32,000 bases of DNA from Methylorubrum extorquens. Its GTDB lineage: Bacteria > Pseudomonadota > Alphaproteobacteria > Rhizobiales > Beijerinckiaceae. A model generated the notes under the pieces. It saw only the letters and a program-made list of their open reading frames with translations. It was not told the DNA's origin and did not search any database. How positions within the stretch are numbered: the first letter of the stretch is position 1; each line of letters begins with the position of its first letter. Below, piece by piece: positions 1 to 23,370 of the stretch. The DNA lies in contig LT962688.1 in the NCBI GenBank assembly GCA_900234795.1, positions 2,880,001 to 2,912,000 of the forward strand, in the 5' to 3' direction. Position numbers and translations under genes: made by a program.

Positions 1-1507
1 AGGCCACGTCGAAGAGCGGCTGGCCGCCGAGGCGCTCGATCGCCTCCGGCGTCAGGCGGACGGGCAGCAGCGTGTCGGTCGGCGTGCCGAAGCGGATCAG
101 AGGGTGATCGCTTTCGATCAGCTTCTTCGCGTTGCGCTCGCCGATCCGGTAGTAGCTCATGGTCTCGACTTCGAGCCCTGGCACAATTGCCTTGACCACG
201 CCGATCCCGCCGCCGGGCGGCGTGCAATCGACGTAGAGCACATCGAAGCCTGCCTCCTCCAGCCGGTCGCGGGCGATCTTTCCGCGAGCGTGACCGTCCG
301 GGGCCGGTGTTGTCGGCAAGTCGGAAAACGCCTTGGTGCTGCGCTCGGAATAGACCGTGTTGCTCAGAACCCCACGCAGCTCGGCCGACGAGAGGTCGAG
401 CCATGCGAGCATGGCCTGCAGCGCGCGGCTCTCCTCCAGATCGAGGCTCGGCAATGCCTTCTGGATGAAGGATTCGACATAGCCGGGCGGGGCCACCGTG
501 TCGGCAAGCGCCAGCGGCCCGTGGCCGAAGGTTTTTCGGACGCGCGCCGCCTGAAACTCGAGAAGCGCCTTGCGCAAAGCCCGCTCGCGGTCCGGATCGC
601 AGGCCTCGCCGCAGGCCGAGAGCGCGATCGGCGCGGGCGTCCGGGCCGGGTCCTCGTCGTAGCCGACGACGTAGAGGTTGGTGAGACCGAACTGATCGGT
701 GGCGAATTTCGGCAGCGCCCGGATGCCGAGGCTTTCCAGCCGGTCGAGCATGCCGCGCGTCTCGGGGCCGATCCCGTCGAGATCGAGCATCACGCCCTGA
801 TCGAGGGCCCGGAACAACAGGCCGTTGCCGTCGCGCTGGAGCAGTTCGAGCAGACCGTGGCCCAGCGCAAAGTTCACGTCCGGCCCGGCGCCGAGGCCGT
901 TCGTGATGAGGTTGGTGAAGGGCTGATAGCCCTCGCGCAGCTCGAAGTAGTCGGTCGCGGCGATATCGAGCGGCATCCACACCGACTCGCCGGTGCGGGC
1001 GCGGACCGCCTTAGTCCAATCGAGCGGGGTATCGCGGCCGACGGAGGAACCGGCGGGCAGGCACAAAGTCAGCGGATCGGCGACGGAGGATGCGCCGTAG
1101 ACGCGCACGAGGTCGGCGTAGGAGACGGCCGCTTGGTTGTCGGCCTTGCGTGGCAGCAGGGCGACGGACGGCATCAGGTTCTCGGCGATCTCGGCCACCG
1201 CGCCGATCAGCGCTTCGTCGTCGGTGGCGCCGTAGCCGATGCCGGAAGGCATGGCGCCGACATAGAACGGATCATCGAGAAAGAGCGCCACGAACCAGAC
1301 CGGGATGCCGGTGCGGTCGAGCCCCGCGAGATTGAAGCCGACGACCCGGCCCTCCGGCAGCACATCGAGATAGGCCTTCACGACATCGGGCAGCCGCGCG
1401 GGCAGCCCCTCGATCTTGCGCGGAGAGCCGCGGTGATAGGGGCGCGGCGCCGCCAGATTCGGGTGGTGGGCGCGGTCGTCCCGGTCGAGGGCGTCGGTCG
1501 CTGTCAT
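1..1507 (-). CDS. YcaO-domain protein (C-terminal end lies beyond the window start)
   Basis: It is absent from the ORF track because it has no stop codon inside the window. Hand translation of the minus strand from ATG (1507-1505) stays open down to position 1, about 502 codons: MTATDALDRDDRAHH...LTPEAIERLGGQPLFDVA. It carries YcaO-type motifs PSGIGYGATDDEALIGAVAEIAEN (GxGxGxT...A...A..E..E) and TNGLGAGPDVNFALGHGLLELLQRDG (NGxxAG....E..E/QRD). The listed + ORF 104..1561 is its antisense shadow. Confidence 0.75.
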   Translation of the reverse strand, partial: MTATDALDRDDRAHHPNLAAPRPYHRGSPRKIEGLPARLPDVVKAYLDVLPEGRVVGFNLAGLDRTGIPVWFVALFLDDPFYVGAMPSGIGYGATDDEALIGAVAEIAENLMPSVALLPRKADNQAAVSYADLVRVYGASSVADPLTLCLPAGSSVGRDTPLDWTKAVRARTGESVWMPLDIAATDYFELREGYQPFTNLITNGLGAGPDVNFALGHGLLELLQRDGNGLLFRALDQGVMLDLDGIGPETRGMLDRLESLGIRALPKFATDQFGLTNLYVVGYDEDPARTPAPIALSACGEACDPDRERALRKALLEFQAARVRKTFGHGPLALADTVAPPGYVESFIQKALPSLDLEESRALQAMLAWLDLSSAELRGVLSNTVYSERSTKAFSDLPTTPAPDGHARGKIARDRLEEAGFDVLYVDCTPPGGGIGVVKAIVPGLEVETMSYYRIGERNAKKLIESDHPLIRFGTPTDTLLPVRLTPEAIERLGGQPLFDVA

Positions 1508-1537
1508 CGTTACCCTGTTTGCGGCTCGCCGGAACTC

Positions 1538-1670
1538 ACCCAACCCACGGCCTCATCCTGAGGTGCGAGGCGAAGCAGAGCCTCGAAGGATCCTCCAGTT
1601 CCCACGCGGTCGCTGGAGGATCCTTCGAGGCCGCTCGCGCGGCACCTCAGGATGAGGGCATGGGTTGGAT
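1538..1670. repeat. Nested-palindrome intergenic repeat element, copy 1 (REP/MITE-like)
   Basis: The core is 1551..1657. The outer arms CCTCATCCTGAGGTGC / GCACCTCAGGATGAGG pair over 16 bp. The inner arms GCCTCGAAGGATCCTCCAG / CTGGAGGATCCTTCGAGGC pair perfectly over 19 bp around a 14-nt loop. Imperfect arm extensions (CCAACCCA.. / ..TGGGTTGG) reach about 1538 and 1670. The same arms recur at 11691..11800 and, in diverged form, at 9619..9759. Confidence 0.85.
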
Positions 1671-1694
1671 GTGCCGGTCTCCTCCCAAATCTCG

Positions 1695-2726
1695 TCAGGC
1701 CGCGTCGCGGCCGGCCGGTTTGCCCGCCGCCGCGTAGGCGCGGGCGATCAGGCGCATGGTGTGCAGGTCGCGCTCGGCGTCCCAGGCGGTGCGCTCGTCC
1801 CGTTCGCGCAGGGCGCGGCCGAAGGCGCGCACCTGTTCGAGGAAGGGCGAGGCCGTCGTGTCGAAGGCGATGTCCTCGACCCGGCCATCCGCCCCGTTCG
1901 TGAAGGTGACGCTGCCGCCCGCGGTCTGGCCCATCGTGTCGGTCGCGGTGAGCATCCCACCGGTGCCAACCACCTCCAGCCGGCGGCGCGGCAGGGCGTC
2001 GGGGCAATTGTAGGCCACGTTGAGCTGGGCAAGCGCGCCCGAACCGGTGCGGCCGATCAGCAGGGCACCGTCATCGACGGCGTAATCCTGCGCACGGGCC
2101 TGGGTCATGGCCGCGATCTCGTCGATCGGCTCGCCGAGCAGGAAATCCACGAGGTCGATCCCGTGGGGCGCGAGGTCGATCAGCGCGCCGCCGCCCGCCT
2201 GGGTCGGATCGATGCGCCAGTTGTCCTGGCCCCGGAACGACGCCCAGGCCCGATCGAGCCAGCAGGCGTAGACGATGCGCACCGCCGTCACCGTGCCGAG
2301 CCGGCCCGCGCGGATGAGGTCGCGCATGGCACGGTGGCCGGGATGGTGGCGCTGGTCGAAGGCGGTGCCGTAGAACGCGCCGGACTTGCGCACCGCCGCC
2401 GCCATCGCTTCCGCATCGGCGAGAGAGGCGGCCATCGGCTTCTCGCACAGCACCGCCTTGCCGGCGGCACAGAGCGCTTCGACCGCGCCGCGATGGAGAT
2501 GGTTCGGGGTGGCGACATAGACCGCCTCGACCTCGGGCTCGGCGATCAGCCCGGCGAGGTCGGCATGCGCCCGCGCGCCCTCGGCTTCCGCCGCCGCACG
2601 CGATGCCGCGCCGGGGTCGGCAACGGCGATCAGGCGGTGCCCCGCGGCGCGGATGCCGGGCGCCATGTAATCGCGGGCGACCCAGCCATAGCCGACGATG
2701 CCCCAGCCGACGCTTCCCACCATCAC
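1695..2726 (-). CDS. Gfo/Idh/MocA family NAD(P)-dependent oxidoreductase
   Basis: 343-aa ORF. It has an N-terminal Rossmann motif GIVGYGWVARDY, the family EKP motif (AVLCEKPMA) and a C-terminal alpha/beta domain. Its start (GTG 2726 or ATG 2723) overlaps the stop of the upstream methyltransferase gene (GTGATG). Confidence 0.85.
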   Translation of the reverse strand: MMVGSVGWGIVGYGWVARDYMAPGIRAAGHRLIAVADPGAASRAAAEAEGARAHADLAGLIAEPEVEAVYVATPNHLHRGAVEALCAAGKAVLCEKPMAASLADAEAMAAAVRKSGAFYGTAFDQRHHPGHRAMRDLIRAGRLGTVTAVRIVYACWLDRAWASFRGQDNWRIDPTQAGGGALIDLAPHGIDLVDFLLGEPIDEIAAMTQARAQDYAVDDGALLIGRTGSGALAQLNVAYNCPDALPRRRLEVVGTGGMLTATDTMGQTAGGSVTFTNGADGRVEDIAFDTTASPFLEQVRAFGRALRERDERTAWDAERDLHTMRLIARAYAAAGKPAGRDAA

Positions 2727-3904
2727 CAGCGCTCCGGCAGATCGACGTATTCGCGGCGGCGCACTCGCGCTGCGTCCGACGTGTTGGGCTTGCCGTTCCA
2801 GTCGATGGCCTCCGGGCCATCCGAATGCAGCGGATAAGTCGCCTGCGAGGCGTACTCAGCCTCGTAGCGCTCCGATGGCCAGCGAATGGCGAAGCCACCG
2901 TCCTCGGGCACGTAGAGCGGATTGAGGTGAAGCGCCGCGTCTGCCGGCGGCAGCGTGATGCCGTCGACGATCGCCCGCGGCGCCGGCCGCATCCCGGGCC
3001 CGGCCACCACCGAGAACGCCTCGCAGCCTCTAAGGTCGCGCGGCTCGCGGGGCTGCGGTGCGCGCGCCTCGACCAGGGCGCGGGTCAGTTCGGCGTCGTC
3101 GTAGACCAGCCCGTCCGGGAACAGCTCCTCGATTTCGGCCGCCGAGATTGCCTTGCCGGCCGAGAAGCCGGGCTGCCCGCTGTTGTGGATGTGGCTGAGG
3201 GCGAGCCAGCCCTCTTCCCCGGCGGTCTGCCGCAGGCAGGACAGGATGCCGGGCTTGTCGTCGAGGAAGTAGAAAGCGTCGTTGCAGATCACGAGATCGA
3301 CCGGCGCCTCGGGAATCGGCCAATGCGGCGACGACGCGTCGAAACAGACGAGCTGCGCCTTTTCGCCGACCACCCAGTGGCGGGCCACCCAGAGCTTGGC
3401 GAAGACCACGTCCGCACCCGCGACCTTCACGCCCCGGCGCTTCAATTCGCGCAGGTAATGGCCGATGCCGCAGGCAAGCTCGAACGCACAGACCGGGTCG
3501 TTCCAGTGCGCCTCCAGCAGGCTCAGGCCCGCCAGGAAGGTCGGGTCGGTCCAGCGGTTGACGAAGTAGTCGCCGACGCGGCCCCAGCCGAGCCAGTCCA
3601 CGGCCTGCCGCAGGGTGGCGCTCGCGCGCTCCCGAACCAGCCGGCGCAACGACTCCGGGTCGGCCGGCGGACCGGTCCACCAATCGTCCTGATCGGCCAG
3701 CAGGAGGACGAGCGCGTCCTCCCGCCGATCGGCGTCGAGATGATCGAGCGCTGCCGCGACGAGGCTATCGCGGCCGGTGCGAAGATAGGGAATGCCGTCG
3801 ATGACCGGCCAGCGGGCTCCGGTTTCGGCGTCGCGCAGGGCATGCGCGCCGTCGGCCTTGAGCCTGTGGCCGGTCTCCGGCGAGAGGAGATCGAAGGGGA
3901 TCAT
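2723..3904 (-). CDS. Class I SAM-dependent methyltransferase with an N-terminal Trm112-like segment and a C-terminal extension of unknown function
   Basis: 393-aa ORF with an ATG start at 3904. SAM motif I is FELACGIGHY, followed by an acidic residue after beta-2 (GADVV) and LVICNDAFYF (motif IV-like). The N-terminal WPVIDGIPYL resembles the Trm112-type YPIxDGIPxL motif but lacks the Zn cysteines. The last ~120 aa have no motif I recognise. Confidence 0.75.
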   Translation of the reverse strand: MIPFDLLSPETGHRLKADGAHALRDAETGARWPVIDGIPYLRTGRDSLVAAALDHLDADRREDALVLLLADQDDWWTGPPADPESLRRLVRERASATLRQAVDWLGWGRVGDYFVNRWTDPTFLAGLSLLEAHWNDPVCAFELACGIGHYLRELKRRGVKVAGADVVFAKLWVARHWVVGEKAQLVCFDASSPHWPIPEAPVDLVICNDAFYFLDDKPGILSCLRQTAGEEGWLALSHIHNSGQPGFSAGKAISAAEIEELFPDGLVYDDAELTRALVEARAPQPREPRDLRGCEAFSVVAGPGMRPAPRAIVDGITLPPADAALHLNPLYVPEDGGFAIRWPSERYEAEYASQATYPLHSDGPEAIDWNGKPNTSDAARVRRREYVDLPERW

Positions 3905-3935
3905 GAGCCTGGATTCTGCCGGACAGCGCGGGACG

Positions 3936-4856
3936 TCACGGGATGCGCATATCGGTCAGAACGCGATCCTGGAAAGCCTTGACCGGCCCGGCATGGACCA
4001 GTTCCATCTCGCCGAGCACCGTATCCATCGTCAGCGAAGCGGCCCGGAGGTGCTGGGCGATCTGCAGGACGCGGTCGATGGAATCGGCGGCGTGGAAGGC
4101 GCGGCCCTCCGCCGTGGCATCATCCGGCAGGACGAGACGGGCGGCACGGACCGTCTCCCGCAGCGGCGGCTCCAGCTCCTCAAGGGCCCATTCCGAACAC
4201 CGCCCGACGATCGGCCAGAGATGGTCGCCGAGCAGCATCTCGCCAGTGAAGCCGGCATCGGGCATCGCCGCGTTGTGGAAGTGGTGCGCCATCGCCGCCA
4301 GGAACACGGTGGTCGGATCGGCCCGGTAGAACGGGCTGAGCAGCACGCCGTAGACAGCGACGACGAGGCAATGCTCGGCGTGGTTCTCGGGCGGTTCGAG
4401 CAGGATGCGCGGCTTGCCGGGGCAGGTCACCCCTGCTCTGGGCTGCTGCGCCAGAGCGCCGACGAAGCCCGGCACGGGCCCGGCCGGTAGAGTGGCGGGC
4501 TCGCGCAGGCAGGCTCGAAGTCGATCCCGCAACCCGGGATCGACCGATTCCGAAACCGCGTCGAGCCCCGCCACCAGTACGGCGGAGGCCTGCGCCTCAT
4601 CGAGCCCGGCGGCCGAGAGGAACGCCGCGTCGAGGTCGCAGAGTCGCGCGGCGGCCAGCGCTTTGGCCGTGATGTCGAGGGCGACGGTCTCCGGCGGAGC
4701 GCCGCCGGTGAGCGCCGACCACCCTTGAGCGAATAGACGCTCGGCGATCGAGCCCGCGCGCCCCGCCGAGCGGACGCGCTTGAGATCGCCGAGTTCGACC
4801 AGCAGTTCCCGCACCGCGACGGGAGCTGCCGGCCCGGTTTGCGAAAAACCCGTCAC
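3936..4856 (-). CDS. Hypothetical protein, possibly HD-superfamily metal-dependent enzyme (divergent)
   Basis: 306-aa ORF with a GTG start 12 nt after the stop of the upstream gene. The His/Asp pattern ENHAEHC ... AMAHHFHNAAMPD ... GDHLWP ... FHAADSIDR is reminiscent of the H..HD..D scaffold (YfbR-like layout). The canonical HD dyad reads HN. The start codon is uncertain. Confidence 0.45.
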   Translation of the reverse strand: MTGFSQTGPAAPVAVRELLVELGDLKRVRSAGRAGSIAERLFAQGWSALTGGAPPETVALDITAKALAAARLCDLDAAFLSAAGLDEAQASAVLVAGLDAVSESVDPGLRDRLRACLREPATLPAGPVPGFVGALAQQPRAGVTCPGKPRILLEPPENHAEHCLVVAVYGVLLSPFYRADPTTVFLAAMAHHFHNAAMPDAGFTGEMLLGDHLWPIVGRCSEWALEELEPPLRETVRAARLVLPDDATAEGRAFHAADSIDRVLQIAQHLRAASLTMDTVLGEMELVHAGPVKAFQDRVLTDMRIP

Positions 4857-4868
4857 GGGCGCGGGGCC

Positions 4869-6062
4869 TTACTGCTGCGCGCCGAGCCAGTCGAACAGCA
4901 TCCGCTGCTGCTTGCCGAAATCGTGCTCCGGACCGTGGCCGTTCTTCACCATCGGCGCCTTGAAGAAGGTCGAGAGCTGCTCCTGCACGCCGCCGTCACC
5001 GCGGGACTTGGCGAGATCCAGCACGCGGGCGATTTCGATCACAAGCGGTGCGGCCAGAATCGAGTCCTTGCAGAGGAAGTTGACCTTGATCTGCATGCGC
5101 TGGCCCATGAAGCCTGTGACGTCGATGTTGTCCCAGGCTTCCTTGTCGTCGCCGCGCGGGCGGTAATAGTGGATGTGCACGAGGTGATCTTCGACCGGGT
5201 AGCCGAGGATCGAATCGAGCACCGTGCCCTTGGTGTTGAGCTTCGATTGCAGCGAGTTTGGATCGTTGAGGGCCAAGCCGTCGCGATTGCCGAGGATGTT
5301 GGTCGAGAACCAGCCATCGACGTGAAGCTGGCGGGCCTTCAGGGCCGGGGCCAGCACCGTCTTCATCATGGTCTGGCCGGTCTTGCCGTCCTTGCCGGCG
5401 ACCGGGACGTTCAGCTCGCGGGCGAGTTCCATCAGGGCCGGCACGTCGGCGGCGATGGAGGGGGTGAAGTTCGCGTAGGGAACGCCGCTCTTGATCGCCG
5501 CATAGGCGTAGAGCATCGCCGGCGAGATCGACTCGTCGCTCGAATCGAGCCCCTTCTCGAAAGCTTCGGCCGAGTTGAGAACCGGCACGGAGAGATCGGG
5601 CCAGCGCTCGGTCGAGGCGAGGTTGATCACCACGACGTCGTCGAGGTTGCTCTCCTTGCGGAAGCGGTTGAGGTCGTTGGCAATGACCGAGACGGTCTCG
5701 CGATGGTCCTTGGCGACGATGCGGTTGCCGCCGTCGATGTTCTTGCAGAACTTGGCCGAGCCGACCGCCGGCCAGGGCGTGATGCCCTTGAGCGCCTGGG
5801 CGCCATTCTCGATATCCTCGCGGCTCAGCACGCCGTGGCCGGTGGCGGCCGAAGCGAGGTCGTCGCCGTTCAGATCCCAACCGCCGAAGACGAGATCCTT
5901 ATAGTCGGCCATCCCGGCGACGGAGACACCCGCGAGCGGAAGGCCATCCAGACGGTTCGAACCCGATTTGATGGTTTCGATGCCGGCGATAGCTGTCGTC
6001 GCGACTGCACCGCCCATGCCAACGAACGCCACTCCGACGCGTCGACCGGTCTGAATGCCCAT
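4869..6062 (-). CDS. Inositol-3-phosphate synthase (myo-inositol-1-phosphate synthase family)
   Basis: The ORF spans 4869..6140. The likely start is the internal ATG at 6062 (MGIQTGRRVGVAFVGMGGAVATT, an NAD-binding GxGxxA motif). Family motifs present are VVINLASTERW, FSTNILGNRDGLAL and LQSKLNTKGTVL. Confidence 0.85.
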   Translation of the reverse strand: MGIQTGRRVGVAFVGMGGAVATTAIAGIETIKSGSNRLDGLPLAGVSVAGMADYKDLVFGGWDLNGDDLASAATGHGVLSREDIENGAQALKGITPWPAVGSAKFCKNIDGGNRIVAKDHRETVSVIANDLNRFRKESNLDDVVVINLASTERWPDLSVPVLNSAEAFEKGLDSSDESISPAMLYAYAAIKSGVPYANFTPSIAADVPALMELARELNVPVAGKDGKTGQTMMKTVLAPALKARQLHVDGWFSTNILGNRDGLALNDPNSLQSKLNTKGTVLDSILGYPVEDHLVHIHYYRPRGDDKEAWDNIDVTGFMGQRMQIKVNFLCKDSILAAPLVIEIARVLDLAKSRGDGGVQEQLSTFFKAPMVKNGHGPEHDFGKQQRMLFDWLGAQQ

Positions 6063-6377
6063 GGGAACTCGATCTTTCTGTTGTGGTGGCGCTGACGCCT
6101 TAGGATGAGCCCTAACGGGAGGCCGCGCGGCCCATGACAACTGTGACCAACCCGGTCCGTTCCGGTGCCGACCCTGCCATCTTTGCCGCAGGTCCGCTTT
6201 CGCCGGGACTGCATCGTTTGGTTAAAATATCGTAAACACAATGGCTTAACGCTGGATTAACGGGATCACGTTTGGATCACGGGGTGGTCCCATTGTGGTC
6301 ACACCCGGCGGCGAAACCTCCGCCGGTCAAACGAAGCCCGGCACAAAAGAACGCCGAGGCACCAACAAGGAAGACCG

Positions 6378-7496
6378 ATGGGGGTTTACCCGGAGCCGGC
6401 GCGCTGCGCCGACGACGTAAGCCGACTCGTGCCTTGCGGGTCGAATGCCGGCAACGGTGCTGCTTCGCAGCCGTCGCGCGTTCGTTCGCCGCTCGTGCGC
6501 AGCCTTGCCGCCTTGACCGCCAGCGTGACCCTGCTGCTGGCCGGGCCGCAGGCCGTGTCCGCCTACGAGAACGCACATGTCGCGATTTCGATCCCGATGA
6601 TGGTGCGGGCCGATCTCCGCCCGGCCGGGGCCGAGGCGGAATGGGGCGGCACCGCGCTGCTCGGCCAGGCTGGCGGGCTGACCGCCTCGATCGACCGCAT
6701 GCAGGCGTCGCTGGCCAATCCCCGTTCGGACACCGACGACGAGATCCTCCGCTTCGGCGAGATGAGCGTGTCGCGTCCGCTGGTGGAAACGATCCTCAAG
6801 GCCTCCGAGGTGACCGGCGTCGATCCCGTCTACATGATGGCGCTCGCCGACAAGGAATCGAGCTTCGATACCAACGTGAAGTCCTCCGCCTCCTCGGCGC
6901 AGGGTCTGTTCCAGTTCGTCACCGGCACCTGGCTGGAGATGATCCGTCAGTACGGCGCCAAGCACGGAATGGCCGATGACGCCGCCGCGGTGAAGGGCCA
7001 TGGCGCCGGCATCACCATCGCCGACGCGGCGACCCGCAAGCGGGTTCTCGACCTGCGCAACGACCCCTACGTCTCCGGCCTGATGGCCGGCGAGTTGATC
7101 AAGCGGGACCGTAGCCGGATCGAGGCGCGGATCGGCCGCGAGTTGAAGACCACCGAACTCTATCTCGCGCATTTCCTCGGCACCGCGAGCGCCGGCAAGT
7201 TCCTGTCGCTCAGCGCCGAGGATCCGGACAAGGTCGCCAAGGCCGCCTTCGGCCGGGCCGCGCGTGCCAACCGCGCCATCTTCACCGCCAAGGACGGGGG
7301 CAAGCGCCGCAGCCTCACCGTGGCCGAAGTCCACGAGAAGCTCGACGGCATGATCGACCGGCGCCTGAGCCAGTATCAGGCCATCGCCGATCTCGCGCAG
7401 CAGCAGGCCGAGGAGCCGGCCGCACCGATCCTCGACGCCCGCCTGCGTCTCAGCGAGGACGTGGTGCCGTCGCTGGCGATCCGCTCGGTTCAGTAG
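6378..7496 (+). CDS. Secreted lytic transglycosylase (SLT) domain protein
   Basis: 372-aa ORF. A signal-peptide-like segment SLAALTASVTLLLAGPQAVSA is present. The SLT catalytic region is MALADKESSFDTNVKSSASSAQGLFQF (an E-S catalytic motif plus a GLxQ-like motif). The true start may be the GTG at 6495, just before the signal peptide. Confidence 0.7.
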   Translation: MGVYPEPARCADDVSRLVPCGSNAGNGAASQPSRVRSPLVRSLAALTASVTLLLAGPQAVSAYENAHVAISIPMMVRADLRPAGAEAEWGGTALLGQAGGLTASIDRMQASLANPRSDTDDEILRFGEMSVSRPLVETILKASEVTGVDPVYMMALADKESSFDTNVKSSASSAQGLFQFVTGTWLEMIRQYGAKHGMADDAAAVKGHGAGITIADAATRKRVLDLRNDPYVSGLMAGELIKRDRSRIEARIGRELKTTELYLAHFLGTASAGKFLSLSAEDPDKVAKAAFGRAARANRAIFTAKDGGKRRSLTVAEVHEKLDGMIDRRLSQYQAIADLAQQQAEEPAAPILDARLRLSEDVVPSLAIRSVQ

Positions 7497-7505
7497 GGAC
7501 CGGGC

Positions 7506-8486
7506 TCAACCCCACAGTTCGGGCTGCGGCGGATAGACCGTGCTGCCCTCGTAGCGCAGGGCCGGCGCCCGGTCCTGGGCGAGCAGCAGCGGCCCGTCGA
7601 GATCGACGTAAGCCGCGTGGTGGGCGAGCAGCAGAGCCGGTGCCATGGCGAGCGACGAGCCGACCATGCAGCCGACCATGATCTCGAAGCCGCGCGCCCG
7701 CGCCTCGTGGGCGAGCTTCAGCGCTTCCGTGAGACCGCCCGCCTTGTCGAGCTTGATGTTGATCGCATCGTAGCGCTTGGCCAGGGCATCGAGCCCGGCG
7801 CGGTCGTGCAGGCTTTCGTCGGCGCAGATCGGAATCGTGCGGTCGATCTCAGCGAGTAAACCGTCCTCGCCCGCTGGCAGCGGCTGCTCGATCAGGCCGA
7901 CACCCGCCGCCGCGCAGGCCGCGAGGTTGTCGCGTATCGTCTTGGGCCGCCACGCCTCGTTGGCATCGACGATGAGGCGCGAATCCGGCGCACCGCGGCG
8001 CACGGCGGCAATTCGCTCAGGGTCGCCCTCGCCGCCGAGCTTCACCTTCAGCAGCGGCCGGTGCGCCGCCCCACGGGCCGCTTCCTCCATCGCGTCCGGA
8101 TCACCAAGGCTCAGCGTGTAGGCGGTGGTGACCGGAGCCGGTGCAGCAACCCCCGCAAGCTCGTAGGCGGGCCTGCCGGTGCGCTTCGCTTCGAGATCCC
8201 ACAGGGCGCAATCGAGGGCGTTGCGGGCGGCACCCGGCTTCATCCGCCCGGCGAGGTCGAACCGCCCTCCCCCGTCGGCGATCCATGCTGCCTGCTCATC
8301 GAGGAAGGCGGCGACATTCTCGACCGTCTCGCCGTAGCGGGCATAGGGCACGCACTCGCCCCGGCCGCGAAACGAACCGTCCTCCACGGTCGCGACGACG
8401 ACGACCGCCTCGGTGCGGCTGCCGCGGGAGATCGTGAACGATCCGGCGATCGGGAAGCGCTCGACGGCAACGGTCAGACGCGGCAT
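7506..8486 (-). CDS. dgcA: Enolase-superfamily epimerase/racemase (dipeptide epimerase / N-acetyl-D-glutamate racemase DgcA-like)
   Basis: 326-aa ORF. It has the muconate-lactonizing-enzyme-subgroup signature: KxK (LLKVKLG), metal ligands VDANEAW, LIEQPL and ICADESL, and a second catalytic Lys in NIKLDKAGG. It lies 13 nt downstream of a DUF1611-type gene. Confidence 0.75.
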   Translation of the reverse strand: MPRLTVAVERFPIAGSFTISRGSRTEAVVVVATVEDGSFRGRGECVPYARYGETVENVAAFLDEQAAWIADGGGRFDLAGRMKPGAARNALDCALWDLEAKRTGRPAYELAGVAAPAPVTTAYTLSLGDPDAMEEAARGAAHRPLLKVKLGGEGDPERIAAVRRGAPDSRLIVDANEAWRPKTIRDNLAACAAAGVGLIEQPLPAGEDGLLAEIDRTIPICADESLHDRAGLDALAKRYDAINIKLDKAGGLTEALKLAHEARARGFEIMVGCMVGSSLAMAPALLLAHHAAYVDLDGPLLLAQDRAPALRYEGSTVYPPQPELWG

Positions 8487-8499
8487 CGGCTCTTCTCCC

Positions 8500-9510
8500 T
8501 CAGGCCGGAAACTCGGCGGCGATCCGATCCACGATCCCCTCGACGCCGAAGCGCACGGGATCGGTGGCGGGCAGGCCGTGAACGGATTCCGCCTCGCTCA
8601 GCAGCGCGCGCGCCTGCGATTCGGACAGGGCCTGCGTGTTCACCGCGATGCCGACGGGGCGGATGCCCGGATTGGTGAGCGAGCCGCAGCGGATGGTCAG
8701 GTCGATGACCTCCTGGATCGTCGGGAGGCTCGCCTCGACGCCGCGCATGCGGGTGCGGGTCGGCTCGTGACAGATCACGAAGGCATCGGCCTGCGCGCCG
8801 TGCAGCAGGCCGAGGCTGACGCCAGCAAAGGAGGGGTGGAACAGCGAGCCCTGCCCCTCGATCAGATCCCAGTGATTCGGCTCGGCCGCCGGGGAGACCC
8901 ACTCCACGGCACCGGAGATGAAGTCGGCAACCACTGCGTCGATGGCCACGCCCCGGCCGGAAATGAACACGCCGGTCTGGCCGGTGGCACGGAAATCGGC
9001 ATCGAAGCCGCGCTCGCGCATGCCACGTTCCAGGGCGAGTGCGGTGTACTTCTTGCCGACTGAGCAATCGGTGCCGACGGTGAGCAGGCGCCGGCCCGGA
9101 CGCTTCGTGCCCTTTCCGGTGGGGAAGGTCTCGGTGGTGTGGCGGACGTCGTGCAGGGCGCGCCCATTGCGCTTCGCCGCCTCGGCGATCTGGGGGATCG
9201 AGCCGAGCCGCACATGCAGCCCGCTCGCCACGTCGAGCCCGGCATCCAATGCCGCCACGATCTCCGCGACCCAGTGGTCGGGTAGTACACCGCCGGCATT
9301 GACGACGCCGACGACCATGGTCTTGCAGCCCTTGGCGACGGCCTCCTCCAGAGTCAGATCGGGGATGCCGAGATCGGCGGCACAGCCCTCCATCCGGAAT
9401 TGGCCGACGCACCATTCGGGGCGCCAGTCATTGATGCCGTAGGCGGTCTTTGCGGCGAGCCGGTCCGGCACGTCGCCGAGAAACATCAGATAGGGCGTGG
9501 CGATCTGCAT
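8500..9510 (-). CDS. dgcN: DUF1611-family protein (D-glutamate N-acetyltransferase DgcN-like)
   Basis: 336-aa ORF with an ATG at 9510. It shows a P-loop-like VGTDCSVGKKYTALAL and the overall DUF1611 layout. Its pairing with the enolase-superfamily gene immediately downstream is the characteristic DgcN-DgcA arrangement. Confidence 0.65.
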   Translation of the reverse strand: MQIATPYLMFLGDVPDRLAAKTAYGINDWRPEWCVGQFRMEGCAADLGIPDLTLEEAVAKGCKTMVVGVVNAGGVLPDHWVAEIVAALDAGLDVASGLHVRLGSIPQIAEAAKRNGRALHDVRHTTETFPTGKGTKRPGRRLLTVGTDCSVGKKYTALALERGMRERGFDADFRATGQTGVFISGRGVAIDAVVADFISGAVEWVSPAAEPNHWDLIEGQGSLFHPSFAGVSLGLLHGAQADAFVICHEPTRTRMRGVEASLPTIQEVIDLTIRCGSLTNPGIRPVGIAVNTQALSESQARALLSEAESVHGLPATDPVRFGVEGIVDRIAAEFPA

Positions 9511-14150: not shown

Positions 14151-14882
14151 TCAGGCCGGGAAGACGCTCGCGAGATAGGCCTGGACGAAGCCCGGCATCC
14201 GGGCGGCGTCGATGTCGGAGCGCGAGCGGGCGATGATGCTGTGGGCGAGTTCCGGCTCGTCCTCGTGGCCGCGATGCGATTCGATGCGAGCCTTCAGCGT
14301 CTCGGCCGAGCAGTCGAAGCGGACCGGGCGCAGGAAGGCGAGTTGGCCGTCGCCGCGCAGCAGCACCCATTCCTCCTCCGCCCCCTCGGGGAGCGTCAGG
14401 CCGGTCTCCTCCAAGAGCTCGCGCGCCGCGCTGCCGGCGAGATCGACCGTGCCGTCATCGCGCAGGTCGCCGGGATCGGGCGTGCCGCAAGGGAAGTAGA
14501 TCTGGCCGGCATTGGCGGTCTGGGCGCCCATCACGCCGAGCAGAACCGCCCCGTCTCGGCTGTGCGGGACGATCGCCGCGAAGGCGTTGGCCACCAGCGC
14601 GTCGGGCACGCCCGCATCGCGGAAGGCGAGGAAGCGCGAATAGCGCACCTCGAACAGGCTCGCCTCGCAGGCGCCGTCCGCCAGGACGCAACCGCTGGCG
14701 AGGTAGACCGGCCCGTCGAACAGGCCCGGCGTCTCCGCCAGGCGGCGCTCCCAGTTGCGGTCGATCGCCTCGGCGTTGTCCCGCGCCCAGGCCCAATCAT
14801 GCTCGACGCGCCGCGCGGAGATCCGATCCAACGGCGTGAGGCTGAAACCGGGTGCGGCGTCGCCCGCGATCTCAATCGACAC
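14151..14882 (-). CDS. NUDIX-like hydrolase
   Basis: 243-aa ORF. The Nudix-box core RELLEETGL (REUxEExGU) is present, but the upstream G-x5-E part is degenerate. The start overlaps the stop of the PhzF-family gene by 11 nt. Confidence 0.55.
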   Translation of the reverse strand: MSIEIAGDAAPGFSLTPLDRISARRVEHDWAWARDNAEAIDRNWERRLAETPGLFDGPVYLASGCVLADGACEASLFEVRYSRFLAFRDAGVPDALVANAFAAIVPHSRDGAVLLGVMGAQTANAGQIYFPCGTPDPGDLRDDGTVDLAGSAARELLEETGLTLPEGAEEEWVLLRGDGQLAFLRPVRFDCSAETLKARIESHRGHEDEPELAHSIIARSRSDIDAARMPGFVQAYLASVFPA

Positions 14883-15801
14883 GCAGCACGCCCTCGCTCA
14901 CCACCACGGCCTGTCCGCCGATCTCGACGGAGCGCAGGGTGCCCTCCGCGATGACGACCTGAAGGTCGATCGTGCTCGGCCGCCCCATGGCGACACCCTG
15001 GCGGATCACCACGTCGTGGGTGCCCTCGCCCAGCGGCTCGAACTGCATCAGCACGCCGGCGAAGGCCGCCGCGGCGCTGCCCGTCGCCGGGTCTTCCGCA
15101 ACACCGAGATGGGGCGCGAACATCCGTGCCTGGTAGCTTTGCCCGAGGCCCTGCGCGTCGAGAGCATAGAGGTAGAGCGCGTCGGGCTCGGCATGGCGGA
15201 ACAGGCGCTCGAACCGGGCGGTATCGAGCCGGGCCTGCGCCAGCGCCTCGCCGGAGGCGAGCGGCACGAAGGTGAAGGCGGGGCCGGCGCCGTGCCGGCT
15301 CGGTTGATGGCGGTTGAAGCCGAGATCGCCGGGCTTCAGTCCCAAAGCCGTGGCCAGGGCTTCATTGGCGGGTGCCTCGCCGAGATAGGTCGGCAGAACC
15401 GGCAGCTTGAAACGGGCACGACCGTTGTGGCCATCCTCCGCCGCCTCGACGACGCAGGAGACGATACCGATCTCCTCCTCGAGGCCGAAGGCGGCGGCAT
15501 CCGCCAGCGCCACCGCCTGCCGCTCGGCCCGGTCGCGGAGGGCGAGCAGCACCGCCGTTCCAACCGTCGGGTGGCCGGCAAAGGGCAGTTCGCGGGTCGG
15601 TGTGAAGATGCGCAGGCGGGCCCGGTGACGCGGCTCGGCCGGCGGCAGGACGAACACCGTCTCCGACAGGTTGAACTCGCCGGCGATCGCCTGCATCGCC
15701 TCGGCGCTGAGCCCGTCGGCATCGAGCACCACCGCGAGCGGGTTTCCGGCCAGCGGCGCGTCGGTGAACACGTCGAGGGTGGCGAAGCGGCGTTCCGGCA
15801 T
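14872..15801 (-). CDS. PhzF-family isomerase/epimerase-like protein
   Basis: The ORF spans 14872..15849. The preferred start is ATG 15801 (or 15804), just after AAGGAG. Motifs are FATLDVFTDAPLAGNPLAVV and NLSETVFV, with two-domain PhzF/DapF-like repeats. Confidence 0.8.
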   Translation of the reverse strand: MPERRFATLDVFTDAPLAGNPLAVVLDADGLSAEAMQAIAGEFNLSETVFVLPPAEPRHRARLRIFTPTRELPFAGHPTVGTAVLLALRDRAERQAVALADAAAFGLEEEIGIVSCVVEAAEDGHNGRARFKLPVLPTYLGEAPANEALATALGLKPGDLGFNRHQPSRHGAGPAFTFVPLASGEALAQARLDTARFERLFRHAEPDALYLYALDAQGLGQSYQARMFAPHLGVAEDPATGSAAAAFAGVLMQFEPLGEGTHDVVIRQGVAMGRPSTIDLQVVIAEGTLRSVEIGGQAVVVSEGVLRVD

Positions 15802-22939: not shown

Positions 22940-23290
22940 TCGTGGAAATTGAGTGGAGGTTTCTGTTGCCAGGTACCTCCGAACCCCGCCTATGCGGTGC
23001 TACCCGCTAGGACTTTAGGTCGGTTTTTGGCACCGCTTACGCGGCGACAGCCACCGGAGCAAAGTTGTCGTTGGCAACTATTGCAAAGGCCCGATAACGG
23101 CGGAACCATGCCGAGCGAAAGTTCACCCTTTACGCCCTCGTCGATCCTATTTCGCCCCCGCCGGAACCCAACACGTGAGGCCGTGCGGCCATCGGTCCTG
23201 GGTTCGGGTGGAGGCGCCGGGTACCGCCCCCGGGTCCGATAGGTTTATTTCGAAGAACGTTTATCGCCATAGCCGGCCTTGCGACCGGCA
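22940..23290 (-). ncRNA. ssrA: tmRNA (SsrA), circularly permuted two-piece type; ends approximate
   Basis: Minus strand. The coding piece begins GGGGGCGAAATAGGATCGACGAGGG at 23159, matching the conserved tmRNA 5' end. The tag frame is GCC AAC GAC AAC TTT GCT CCG GTG GCT GTC GCC GCG TAA = ANDNFAPVAVAA* (23075..23037). Upstream lies a T-arm-like hairpin CCGGG-GGCGGTA-CCCGG, then CGCCTCC-A-CC (23216..23207). That segment pairs with GGGGGCG to give a 7-bp acceptor stem with a G3:U pair. The order is acceptor piece, then a 46-nt spacer hairpin (GAACCCA...TGGGTTC), then the coding piece. Confidence 0.85.
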
Positions 23291-23296
23291 AAGCGA

Positions 23297-23325
23297 ATAT
23301 AGAGAGGCCGACGGCGGTTTTGAAG
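23297..23325 (-). promoter_or_regulatory. Candidate sigma-70 promoter of ssrA
   Basis: On the minus strand: CTTCAA (23325..23320), a 17-nt spacer, then CTATAT (23302..23297). This matches the alphaproteobacterial consensus CTTGAC-N17-CTATAT at 4/6 and 6/6 positions. Confidence 0.4.
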
Positions 23326-23370
23326 AGCGATCTGCGCTCAGACCCGCTCCGCGTTGTGAGCGTGGCCGAT

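Follow-up and report, generated by a model that had tools for sequence, protein, structure and literature searches.

A nine-gene operon for a probable sugar/cyclitol pathway with a candidate non-peptide YcaO enzyme in Methylorubrum extorquens and its relatives

YcaO enzymes have been studied almost only as peptide modifiers, and much of the superfamily is still without an assigned function, which makes one ask what a YcaO does at the end of a gene string that begins with a myo-inositol-3-phosphate synthase (MIPS). Such a string occupies the left end of a 32,000-nucleotide (nt) stretch of Methylorubrum extorquens contig LT962688.1 (positions 2,880,001 to 2,912,000, hereafter the window), and a sequence-only reading had proposed that its five genes form one operon for a cyclitol-derived small molecule rather than for a ribosomally synthesized and post-translationally modified peptide (RiPP). 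These five genes turn out to open an operon of nine, the corresponding cassette moves between phyla as one unit, and the locus very probably encodes a non-RiPP sugar/cyclitol pathway of which the YcaO is an integral enzyme. The locking of one YcaO clade into a sugar/cyclitol cassette provides a genetically tractable test of small-molecule YcaO chemistry in a model organism.

Organization of the operon

The five window genes lie on the minus strand and encode, in order, MIPS (4869-6062, 397 amino acids (aa), the first gene of the operon), an HD-fold protein (3936-4856, 306 aa), a class I S-adenosylmethionine (SAM)-dependent methyltransferase with N- and C-terminal extensions (2723-3904, 393 aa), a Gfo/Idh/MocA NAD(P) oxidoreductase (1695-2726 from a GTG start or 1695-2723 from the ATG one codon downstream that is used by the public gene call, 342/343 aa) and YcaO (1-1507). 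The successive spacings are 12 nt, 31 nt, a GTGATG overlap in which the oxidoreductase start overlaps the methyltransferase stop codon, and 187 nt; all claimed coordinates, gaps and the overlap were reproduced by the open reading frame (ORF) calls, and the five family calls were right, with MIPS, methyltransferase, Gfo/Idh/MocA and YcaO above the Pfam threshold. The region upstream of MIPS (6063-6377), described earlier as AT-rich, displays a lower G+C content than the whole window (59% versus 68%). The YcaO gene had also been described as cut by the window; it is truncated, but merely 37 C-terminal residues of 539 are missing, the first 502 being encoded inside the left edge.

The full-length YcaO and the genes beyond it were read from locus L001 (CP021054.1, a 5.6-Mb chromosome), which was found by an exact protein match of the methyltransferase and differs from the window at just 11 positions across 13,904 aligned bp (99.9% identical genome). 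The suspicion that more genes lie to the left of position 1 was borne out by this near-identical locus, where YcaO is followed by four further operon genes with overlapping stop and start codons, giving the order MIPS, HD-fold protein, SAM methyltransferase, Gfo/Idh/MocA, YcaO, xylose-isomerase-like TIM barrel (PF01261, 113 bits), family 4 glycosyltransferase (GT4; PF00534, 118 bits), PIG-L deacetylase (PF02585, 72 bits) and a uracil-DNA glycosylase (UDG)-superfamily protein (PF03167, 43 bits; L001 16884-17510, left of the window). The GT4 and PIG-L genes are translationally coupled, and the UDG-superfamily gene is in turn coupled to PIG-L. The best solved relatives of the GT4 score a similar 60-75 bits and comprise sucrose-phosphate synthase (SPS), PimA, MshA and BshA, while the PIG-L protein has both of its zinc motifs (PHLDD and HVDH) intact and finds its nearest solved relatives in the N-acetylglucosamine (GlcNAc)-pseudoaglycone deacetylases Dbv21 and Orf2* (65-69 bits). 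The UDG-superfamily protein carries the motifs ETPG and HPSP and is without the four-cysteine cluster that we take to be a feature of family 4 UDGs; among the loci compared, its gene is confined to Methylobacteriaceae, Beijerinckiaceae and Craurococcus.

The widest gap of the string, between the oxidoreductase and YcaO genes, does contain the palindromic repeat reported for it, a nested element resembling repetitive extragenic palindromes or miniature inverted-repeat transposable elements (REP/MITE-like) at 1537-1671, to which no strand is assigned and whose predicted folding energy is -124.6 kcal/mol (z = -9.35). No T-tract follows the palindrome and no terminator was predicted at it; the terminator scan returned three sites, not above shuffled sequences and none of them at the palindrome, and the Rfam search gave just a spurious sub-threshold microRNA match. 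The palindrome core CCTCATCCTGAGG recurs as inverted pairs at two further places in the window, and the element in the gap thus belongs to a dispersed REP/MITE-like family; the two further copies are intergenic (9620-9632/9747-9759 and 11691-11703/11788-11800) and carry the core CCTCAT[C/G]CTGAGG as inverted pairs. Across Methylobacteriaceae the junction measures 40 nt or less in about one-third of the species and holds a strongly folding insert of 90-250 nt in the rest, so the palindrome is an insertion that the operon tolerates rather than a conserved boundary of it. Apart from this repeat insertion the intergenic gaps of the cassette are 0-31 nt. With order and strand kept in the Methylobacteriaceae loci and the palindrome present or absent at the junction, the interpretation of the string as one operon stands.

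A candidate promoter of the extracytoplasmic function (ECF) type, EcfG-like and reading GGAAC-N16-AGTT, was located at 6139-6163 on the minus strand, roughly 100 nt upstream of the start codon of MIPS. Of 74 species-level Methylobacteriaceae loci, 66 show the exact motif and eight carry one-base or spacing variants, and the sequence of its 16-nt spacer varies freely, with a shuffled expectation of 0.055 matches per set of 74; judged by this pattern, the motif is a phylogenetic footprint of a predicted ECF-sigma promoter. The sigma-70 promoter scan gave no match, and the exact EcfG consensus, searched as GGAAC-N15-18-CGTT, was not found in the window, where the conserved motif ends in AGTT. The conserved ECF-type, EcfG-like promoter suggests a stress-protective metabolite rather than an antibiotic and points to a probably stress-related compound in dominant leaf-surface bacteria. 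The EcfG consensus of M. extorquens is given as GAAC-N16,17-(C/G)GTT in a published study (PMC4814048). The same study lists, in strain AM1, the genes META1_0138-0142, where a second, shorter MIPS (META1_0140, 366 aa, a different paralogue) stands by a dTDP-glucose 4,6-dehydratase and a glycosyltransferase and is about twofold down in multiple-ecfG deletion strains (PMC4814048); these genes represent a separate inositol-related sugar cluster in the same genus.

Conservation and variation of the cassette across lineages

A one-genome-per-species scan returned 467 YcaO relatives, of which the best 80, all from Methylobacteriaceae, were used, and wider lineages were reached through a representative library, a homologue search seeded with a PIG-L::YcaO fusion, and the gene contexts of YcaO homologues (41-64% identity). 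Among these best 80 of 467, the nine genes were observed in the same order and orientation in every Methylobacteriaceae locus with enough flank. Eight loci outside the family contain full-length orthologues (35-82% identity) within unrelated flanks, and these derive from a Beijerinckiaceae metagenome-assembled genome (MAG), a metagenomic contig, Acuticoccus, Tundrisphaera, Corallococcus coralloides, Craurococcus roseus (Acetobacteraceae), a Gemmataceae MAG and a Competibacteraceae MAG. The cassette is found in at least four phyla, and the synteny of YcaO with the MIPS-side genes, which had been left to comparison with related genomes, proved to be conserved. MIPS is the most conserved cassette gene, with about 90% identity within Methylobacteriaceae.

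Differential conservation was observed for the members of the cassette. The universal core consists of a carbocycle synthase, the HD-like protein, Gfo, YcaO, GT4 and PIG-L; the variable members are the methyltransferase (an optional gene that Corallococcus lacks), the UDG-like gene, the TIM barrel, and a protein with a zinc (Zn) ribbon and a metallo-beta-lactamase (MBL) fold. In the planctomycete cassettes, which represent two families, MIPS is replaced by a cyclase of the 3-dehydroquinate synthase (DHQS) family (the two copies score 484 and 498 bits on PRK06203 and share 64% identity), and the TIM barrel is missing as well, while the HD-like protein is retained. From this exchange we infer that the role of the first enzyme would be to supply a carbocycle, and that the TIM barrel would process MIPS-derived inositol by inosose isomerization or dehydration toward a keto/deoxy-cyclitol like the direct product of a DHQS-type cyclase. 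The Zn-ribbon/MBL protein, of about 280 aa, is encoded between Gfo and YcaO in all non-Hyphomicrobiales versions (50-80% identity) and shows an N-terminal CxxC...CxxC zinc ribbon and weak ODP/PqsE-like matches; its coordinates are 6799-7656 in L090, 9160-10008 in L091, 9171-10004 in L092, 9159-10004 in L093, 9174-10004 in L094 and 6267-7118 in L095, and in the metagenomic contig (L009) it is relocated and fragmented at about 14333-15184 on the minus strand. The cassette offers an example of pathway plasticity that does not depend on orthologues, with MIPS plus TIM barrel in some lineages and a DHQS-like cyclase in others, and with the MBL partner present, fused or lost.

The flanks of the cassette vary as well. 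In Craurococcus, a GalE UDP-hexose 4-epimerase gene (L093 14929-15939; 420 bits, above cut-off) overlaps the cassette end and is followed by a GT2 and aryl-polyene-like gene set; the coupling of GalE to the cassette hints at a possible galacto configuration of the sugar in some hosts. A transporter or flippase-like gene stands near the cassette in each lineage and differs between them (LPG_synthase_TM, MatE, MFS, EamA). The LPG_synthase_TM, PhoR-like kinase and SLT genes were considered as cassette members and rejected, being syntenic only within Methylobacteriaceae; the last of these, an SLT-domain lytic transglycosylase-like gene at 6378-7496 on the plus strand, is divergent from the operon.

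The YcaO protein and its partner enzymes

The YcaO protein matches PF02624 with 162 bits (cut-off 25.7) over residues 91-446, and its AlphaFold model is confident, with a predicted local distance difference test (pLDDT) score of 89.6 and a predicted template modelling (pTM) score of 0.90. The closest Foldseek match is the archaeal thioamide-forming YcaO 6peu (E = 4e-21, template modelling (TM) score 0.76), and further matches are LynD, TruD, E. coli YcaO and McbD. Residues E106, E109, G204, G206-G208 (of the NGLGAG motif), E221, R225, D226 and the C-terminal YPLYRE are invariant across phyla, and N203 of NGLGAG is nearly so; of the ATP/Mg-binding acidic motifs ExxE, NGxAxG and E..ERD, the last deviates in its second Glu, which is replaced by Gln224. 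With this confident predicted fold and the invariant acidic and NGLGAG motifs, the protein looks functional. The archaeal YcaOs (M. jannaschii MJ1094 and M. kandleri, which act in the thioamidation of a glycine of McrA) are the closest structures and the only PDB sequence matches, and like the present protein they are single-domain and without an E1-like partner; they differ in that identity reaches just about 19%, they act on a protein backbone amide, and the cassette clade has E..QRD instead of E..ERD, a YPLYRE tail and a purely sugar/cyclitol gene context. The models for peptide-directed YcaOs were matched poorly, the SagD model of thiazole/oxazole-modified microcins (TOMM) giving a partial match of 94.7 bits against a cut-off of 219 and the McrA-thioamidation model 63.9 against 365.

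The association of YcaO with the sugar genes extends to gene fusion. A PIG-L::YcaO fusion occurs in the YcaO clade and was seen in the native cassette in Acuticoccus, and among the 50%-identity YcaO representatives four MBL::YcaO fusions, one Gfo::YcaO fusion and one weak YcaO::TIM barrel fusion were detected. No precursor-peptide gene was found in or beside the cassette; when 435 small ORFs taken from nine loci in different lineages were compared, none was conserved between loci outside annotated genes, the only matches being antisense frames of the MBL gene, and the Pfam assignments of neighbouring genes contained no E1-like/Ocin-ThiF, TfuA or flavin mononucleotide (FMN)-dehydrogenase partner at any locus examined. 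Cross-phylum synteny, the PIG-L, Gfo and MBL fusions and the lack of a conserved small ORF all favour the earlier placement of this YcaO in a cyclitol small-molecule pathway.

The remaining window proteins exhibit clear family membership with distant relations to characterized enzymes. MIPS scores 218 bits on PF07994 and 119 bits on PF01658, and its PDB matches are 7nwr (300 bits), the MIPS of A. fulgidus (Archaeoglobus; 204 bits) and a five-membered-cyclitol synthase (just 47 bits). The methyltransferase matches Methyltransf_11, Methyltransf_23 and Methyltransf_25 (38 bits on Methyltransf_11). The oxidoreductase scores 90 bits on PF01408 and 103 bits on PF22725, with 1,5-anhydro-D-fructose reductase as the best solved relative (148 bits) and inositol dehydrogenases at 52-68 bits. 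Mapping of the MIPS-side genes to an already characterized inositol pathway would have told against a new one, and none reaches the cut-off of the models tried: MIPS has 44 bits against 638 on the mycothiol INO1 model, Gfo has 112 against 355 on IolG, and the IolE model gives 21.9 against 290. With IolG and IolE below cut-off, membership in iol inositol catabolism is not indicated, and a gene set that includes MIPS and GT4 speaks for biosynthesis.

The HD-like protein is the least typical of the set. It scores 18 bits on Pfam HD_3, below threshold, and finds no PDB match by sequence, while its AlphaFold model (pLDDT 86) shows a helical N-terminal extension of about 130 residues followed, over residues ~130-306 (the C-terminal 180), by an HD phosphohydrolase fold of the YfbR/HDDC2/DatZ type (Foldseek probability 0.99, TM 0.5-0.64, E-values just 0.08-0.5). 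The dyad of the canonical H...HD...D metal site reads HH (H191-H192) and is invariant across phyla, together with H159, H162, N195, D200, E206, D258, D261 and H288; the Glu that presumably lies three residues after the dyad in YfbR is Asn here.

A proposed pathway and the competing explanations

The specific product proposed earlier, a methylated N-substituted inosose, is not supported by the completed gene set, as the TIM barrel, GT4 and PIG-L change its logic: with this unseen half included, GlcNAc would be attached to the cyclitol and deacetylated afterwards, as happens in mycothiol or paromamine. In the proposed route, MIPS would cyclize glucose-6-phosphate to inositol-3-phosphate, GT4 would move GlcNAc or N-acetylgalactosamine (GalNAc) from a UDP-sugar onto a cyclitol hydroxyl, GalNAc being possible in some hosts given the translational coupling of GalE to the Craurococcus cassette; the HD-fold enzyme would strip the phosphate before or after glycosylation, and PIG-L would remove the acetyl group and free the sugar 2-amine. 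Gfo and the TIM barrel, as an isomerase or dehydratase, would convert the inositol ring to a keto/deoxy form (an inosose or dione), and the methyltransferase would decorate the cyclitol. Finally, YcaO with ATP would O-phosphorylate the carbonyl of the oxidized cyclitol or another amide-like carbonyl, and a C-N bond would form with loss of phosphate. That the freed sugar amine closes onto a neighbouring activated (vinylogous) carbonyl to give an enaminone or amidine, possibly with a sugar-fused oxazine ring, is advanced only tentatively; in that case the YcaO would take the role of the ATP-grasp ligases of mycosporine synthesis. A soluble metabolite of the cyclitol-hexosamine pseudodisaccharide type is the product class that we consider probable, and the chances appear about even that the cassette contains the first YcaO to act on a non-peptide small molecule, as an ATP-dependent cyclodehydratase or amidine-type C-N bond former in a widely transferred, stress-induced cyclitol-hexosamine pathway.

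The proposed route shares features with several known systems without coinciding with any of them. The front end of mycothiol synthesis (Ino1-MshA-MshA2-MshB) likewise has MIPS and, as proposed for the cassette, GT4 addition of GlcNAc, dephosphorylation and PIG-L/LmbE deacetylation; it differs in that MshC (the Cys ligase) and MshD (the acetyltransferase) were found in the cassette at none of the loci, to which the search was confined, in that the cassette adds Gfo, TIM barrel, methyltransferase and YcaO, and in that the hosts are Gram-negative. The paromamine module, with 2-deoxy-scyllo-inosose (DOI) synthase, GT4 (BtrM/NeoD) and PIG-L (BtrD/NeoL), resembles the cassette in combining a carbocycle made from a sugar phosphate with the GT4 and PIG-L families for GlcNAc transfer and deacetylation, and the planctomycete cassettes begin with a DHQS-family cyclase as it does; unlike it, no locus holds an aminotransferase, hence a cyclitol and not an aminocyclitol would be used, YcaO and the HD-like protein are present, and the cassette is a core, genus-wide operon and not a strain-specific antibiotic cluster. 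In mycosporine and gadusol synthesis, which involves desmethyl-4-deoxygadusol synthase (DDGS) or 2-epi-5-epi-valiolone synthase (EEVS), an O-methyltransferase, the ATP-grasp enzyme MysC and MysD/E, a carbocycle, a methylation and ATP-dependent carbonyl activation for a C-N bond would be shared by analogy, which fits a stress- or UV-exposed lifestyle; the differences are that the window cyclase is MIPS and not a DHQS-family enzyme, such an enzyme heading the planctomycete cassettes only, the ATP enzyme is YcaO and not ATP-grasp, and the amine would be a hexosamine and not an amino acid. Neither an ATP-grasp (MysC) nor a MysD/MysE gene was detected in any locus examined. The teicoplanin and A40926 deacetylases Orf2* and Dbv21 act on GlcNAc that is already on a natural-product aglycone; their aglycone is a glycopeptide, and their identity to the cassette PIG-L is low.

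Four other explanations were weighed. A sugar-free product, namely a methylated, N-substituted inosose or inosamine-like cyclitol built by mycosporine-type logic with GT4 and PIG-L as just late decoration or self-protection, gains from the adjacency of MIPS, Gfo, methyltransferase and YcaO and from the planctomycete exchange of MIPS for the cyclase type of mycosporine clusters; it is made improbable by the universality of GT4 and PIG-L beside a dispensable methyltransferase, by the PIG-L fusion to YcaO in Acuticoccus and by the lack of another amine donor or aminotransferase in the cluster. The same GT4 and PIG-L, taken with MIPS, fit the Ino1/MshA/MshB logic of a mycothiol-like thiol or thioamide, in which a glucosamine (GlcN)-inositol would be made and YcaO would thioamidate the N-acetyl group or replace the MshC-type ATP-dependent ligation, and the nearest solved YcaOs are indeed TfuA-independent archaeal thioamide formers. 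Little credence is given to this product, as no cysteine ligase, acetyltransferase or sulfur-transfer gene was found at the loci, the MshA and MshB models are far under cut-off (89.8 versus 462 and 21 versus 224, respectively, with just the broad families matched), PIG-L deacetylation removes the sole amide open to thioamidation, and Gfo, TIM barrel and methyltransferase are left without explanation.

The pair of GT4 and PIG-L is also that of PIG-A and PIG-L in glycosylphosphatidylinositol (GPI) synthesis, PimA ranks with the best matches of the GT4, and a transporter or flippase-like gene, a different one each time, is near in each lineage, all of which would agree with a cell-envelope glycoconjugate, either a GlcN-inositol head group (GPI-like GlcN-phosphatidylinositol or another inositol glycolipid) or a unit of an exported surface glycan. 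This explanation is regarded as unlikely, since the cassette has no CDP-alcohol phosphatidyltransferase or other lipid-linking gene, no membrane domains are annotated on the core proteins, the flippase-like gene is syntenic only within Methylobacteriaceae, and YcaO, Gfo, TIM barrel and methyltransferase would have no role. A YcaO that acts in RiPP or protein modification on a substrate encoded elsewhere, with sugar genes that glycosylate the peptide or represent an unrelated neighbouring operon, is very improbable: the substrates of the characterized YcaOs and the partial SagD-type match favour it, and they are set against a score far below cut-off, the lack of a conserved small ORF and of an E1-like, Ocin-ThiF, TfuA or dehydrogenase partner, the position of YcaO amid overlapping, translationally coupled sugar genes, its fusion to three of them in relatives, and the transfer of the whole cassette across phyla.

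Several observations weigh against a cyclitol-hexosamine pathway with an integral YcaO. To our knowledge, all characterized YcaOs act on peptide or protein amides, and condensation of a ketone with an amine needs no ATP, so the proposed YcaO substrate would have to be an amide-like or vinylogous carbonyl. Where the canonical E..ERD motif has its second Mg-binding Glu, this YcaO clade has an invariant Gln224, and the chemistry may differ accordingly. No cassette enzyme reaches the cut-off of any characterized equivalog model (IolG, IolE, INO1, MshA and MshB among them), and no aminotransferase, ligase or sulfur-transfer gene is present in the cluster. The phosphatase label of the HD-like protein may be wrong, given its HH dyad and its retention with the planctomycete DHQS-type cyclase, which should leave no phosphate. 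Neither the window nor any Methylobacteriaceae or Beijerinckiaceae locus encodes the Zn-ribbon/MBL protein, and without this partner the pathway in the lineage of the window may be a reduced variant. Moreover, the conserved promoter motif is one base off the EcfG consensus at the start of the -10 box, in every species.

Two links to known natural products were considered. It is doubtful that the product family includes UV absorbers with a sugar-fused oxazine, of which methylobamine from Methylobacterium is an example; according to a review, this UVA absorber is a galactopyranose-fused pyrano-oxazine that carries an iminoacetic acid and, in addition, five linear carbons. Methylobamine as the product itself was set aside and kept as a lead only, the described aglycone not being a cyclitol, and no description of its biosynthesis was found in the literature search. 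The literature search likewise found no link of YcaO to inositol, PIG-L, cyclitol or mycothiol. Hopanoid cyclitol-ether biosynthesis was also dropped, as its route uses HpnI/J/K and needs no MIPS.

Other features of the window lie to the right of the operon. DgcA (N-acetyl-D-Glu racemase, 488 bits) at 7506-8486 and DgcN (N-acetyltransferase, 534 bits) at 8500-9510, both on the minus strand and above cut-off, form a D-glutamate utilization pair unrelated to the operon. A two-piece (permuted) alphaproteobacterial transfer-messenger RNA (tmRNA) gene was located at 22946-23328 on the minus strand, with the tag peptide ANDNFAPVAVAA.

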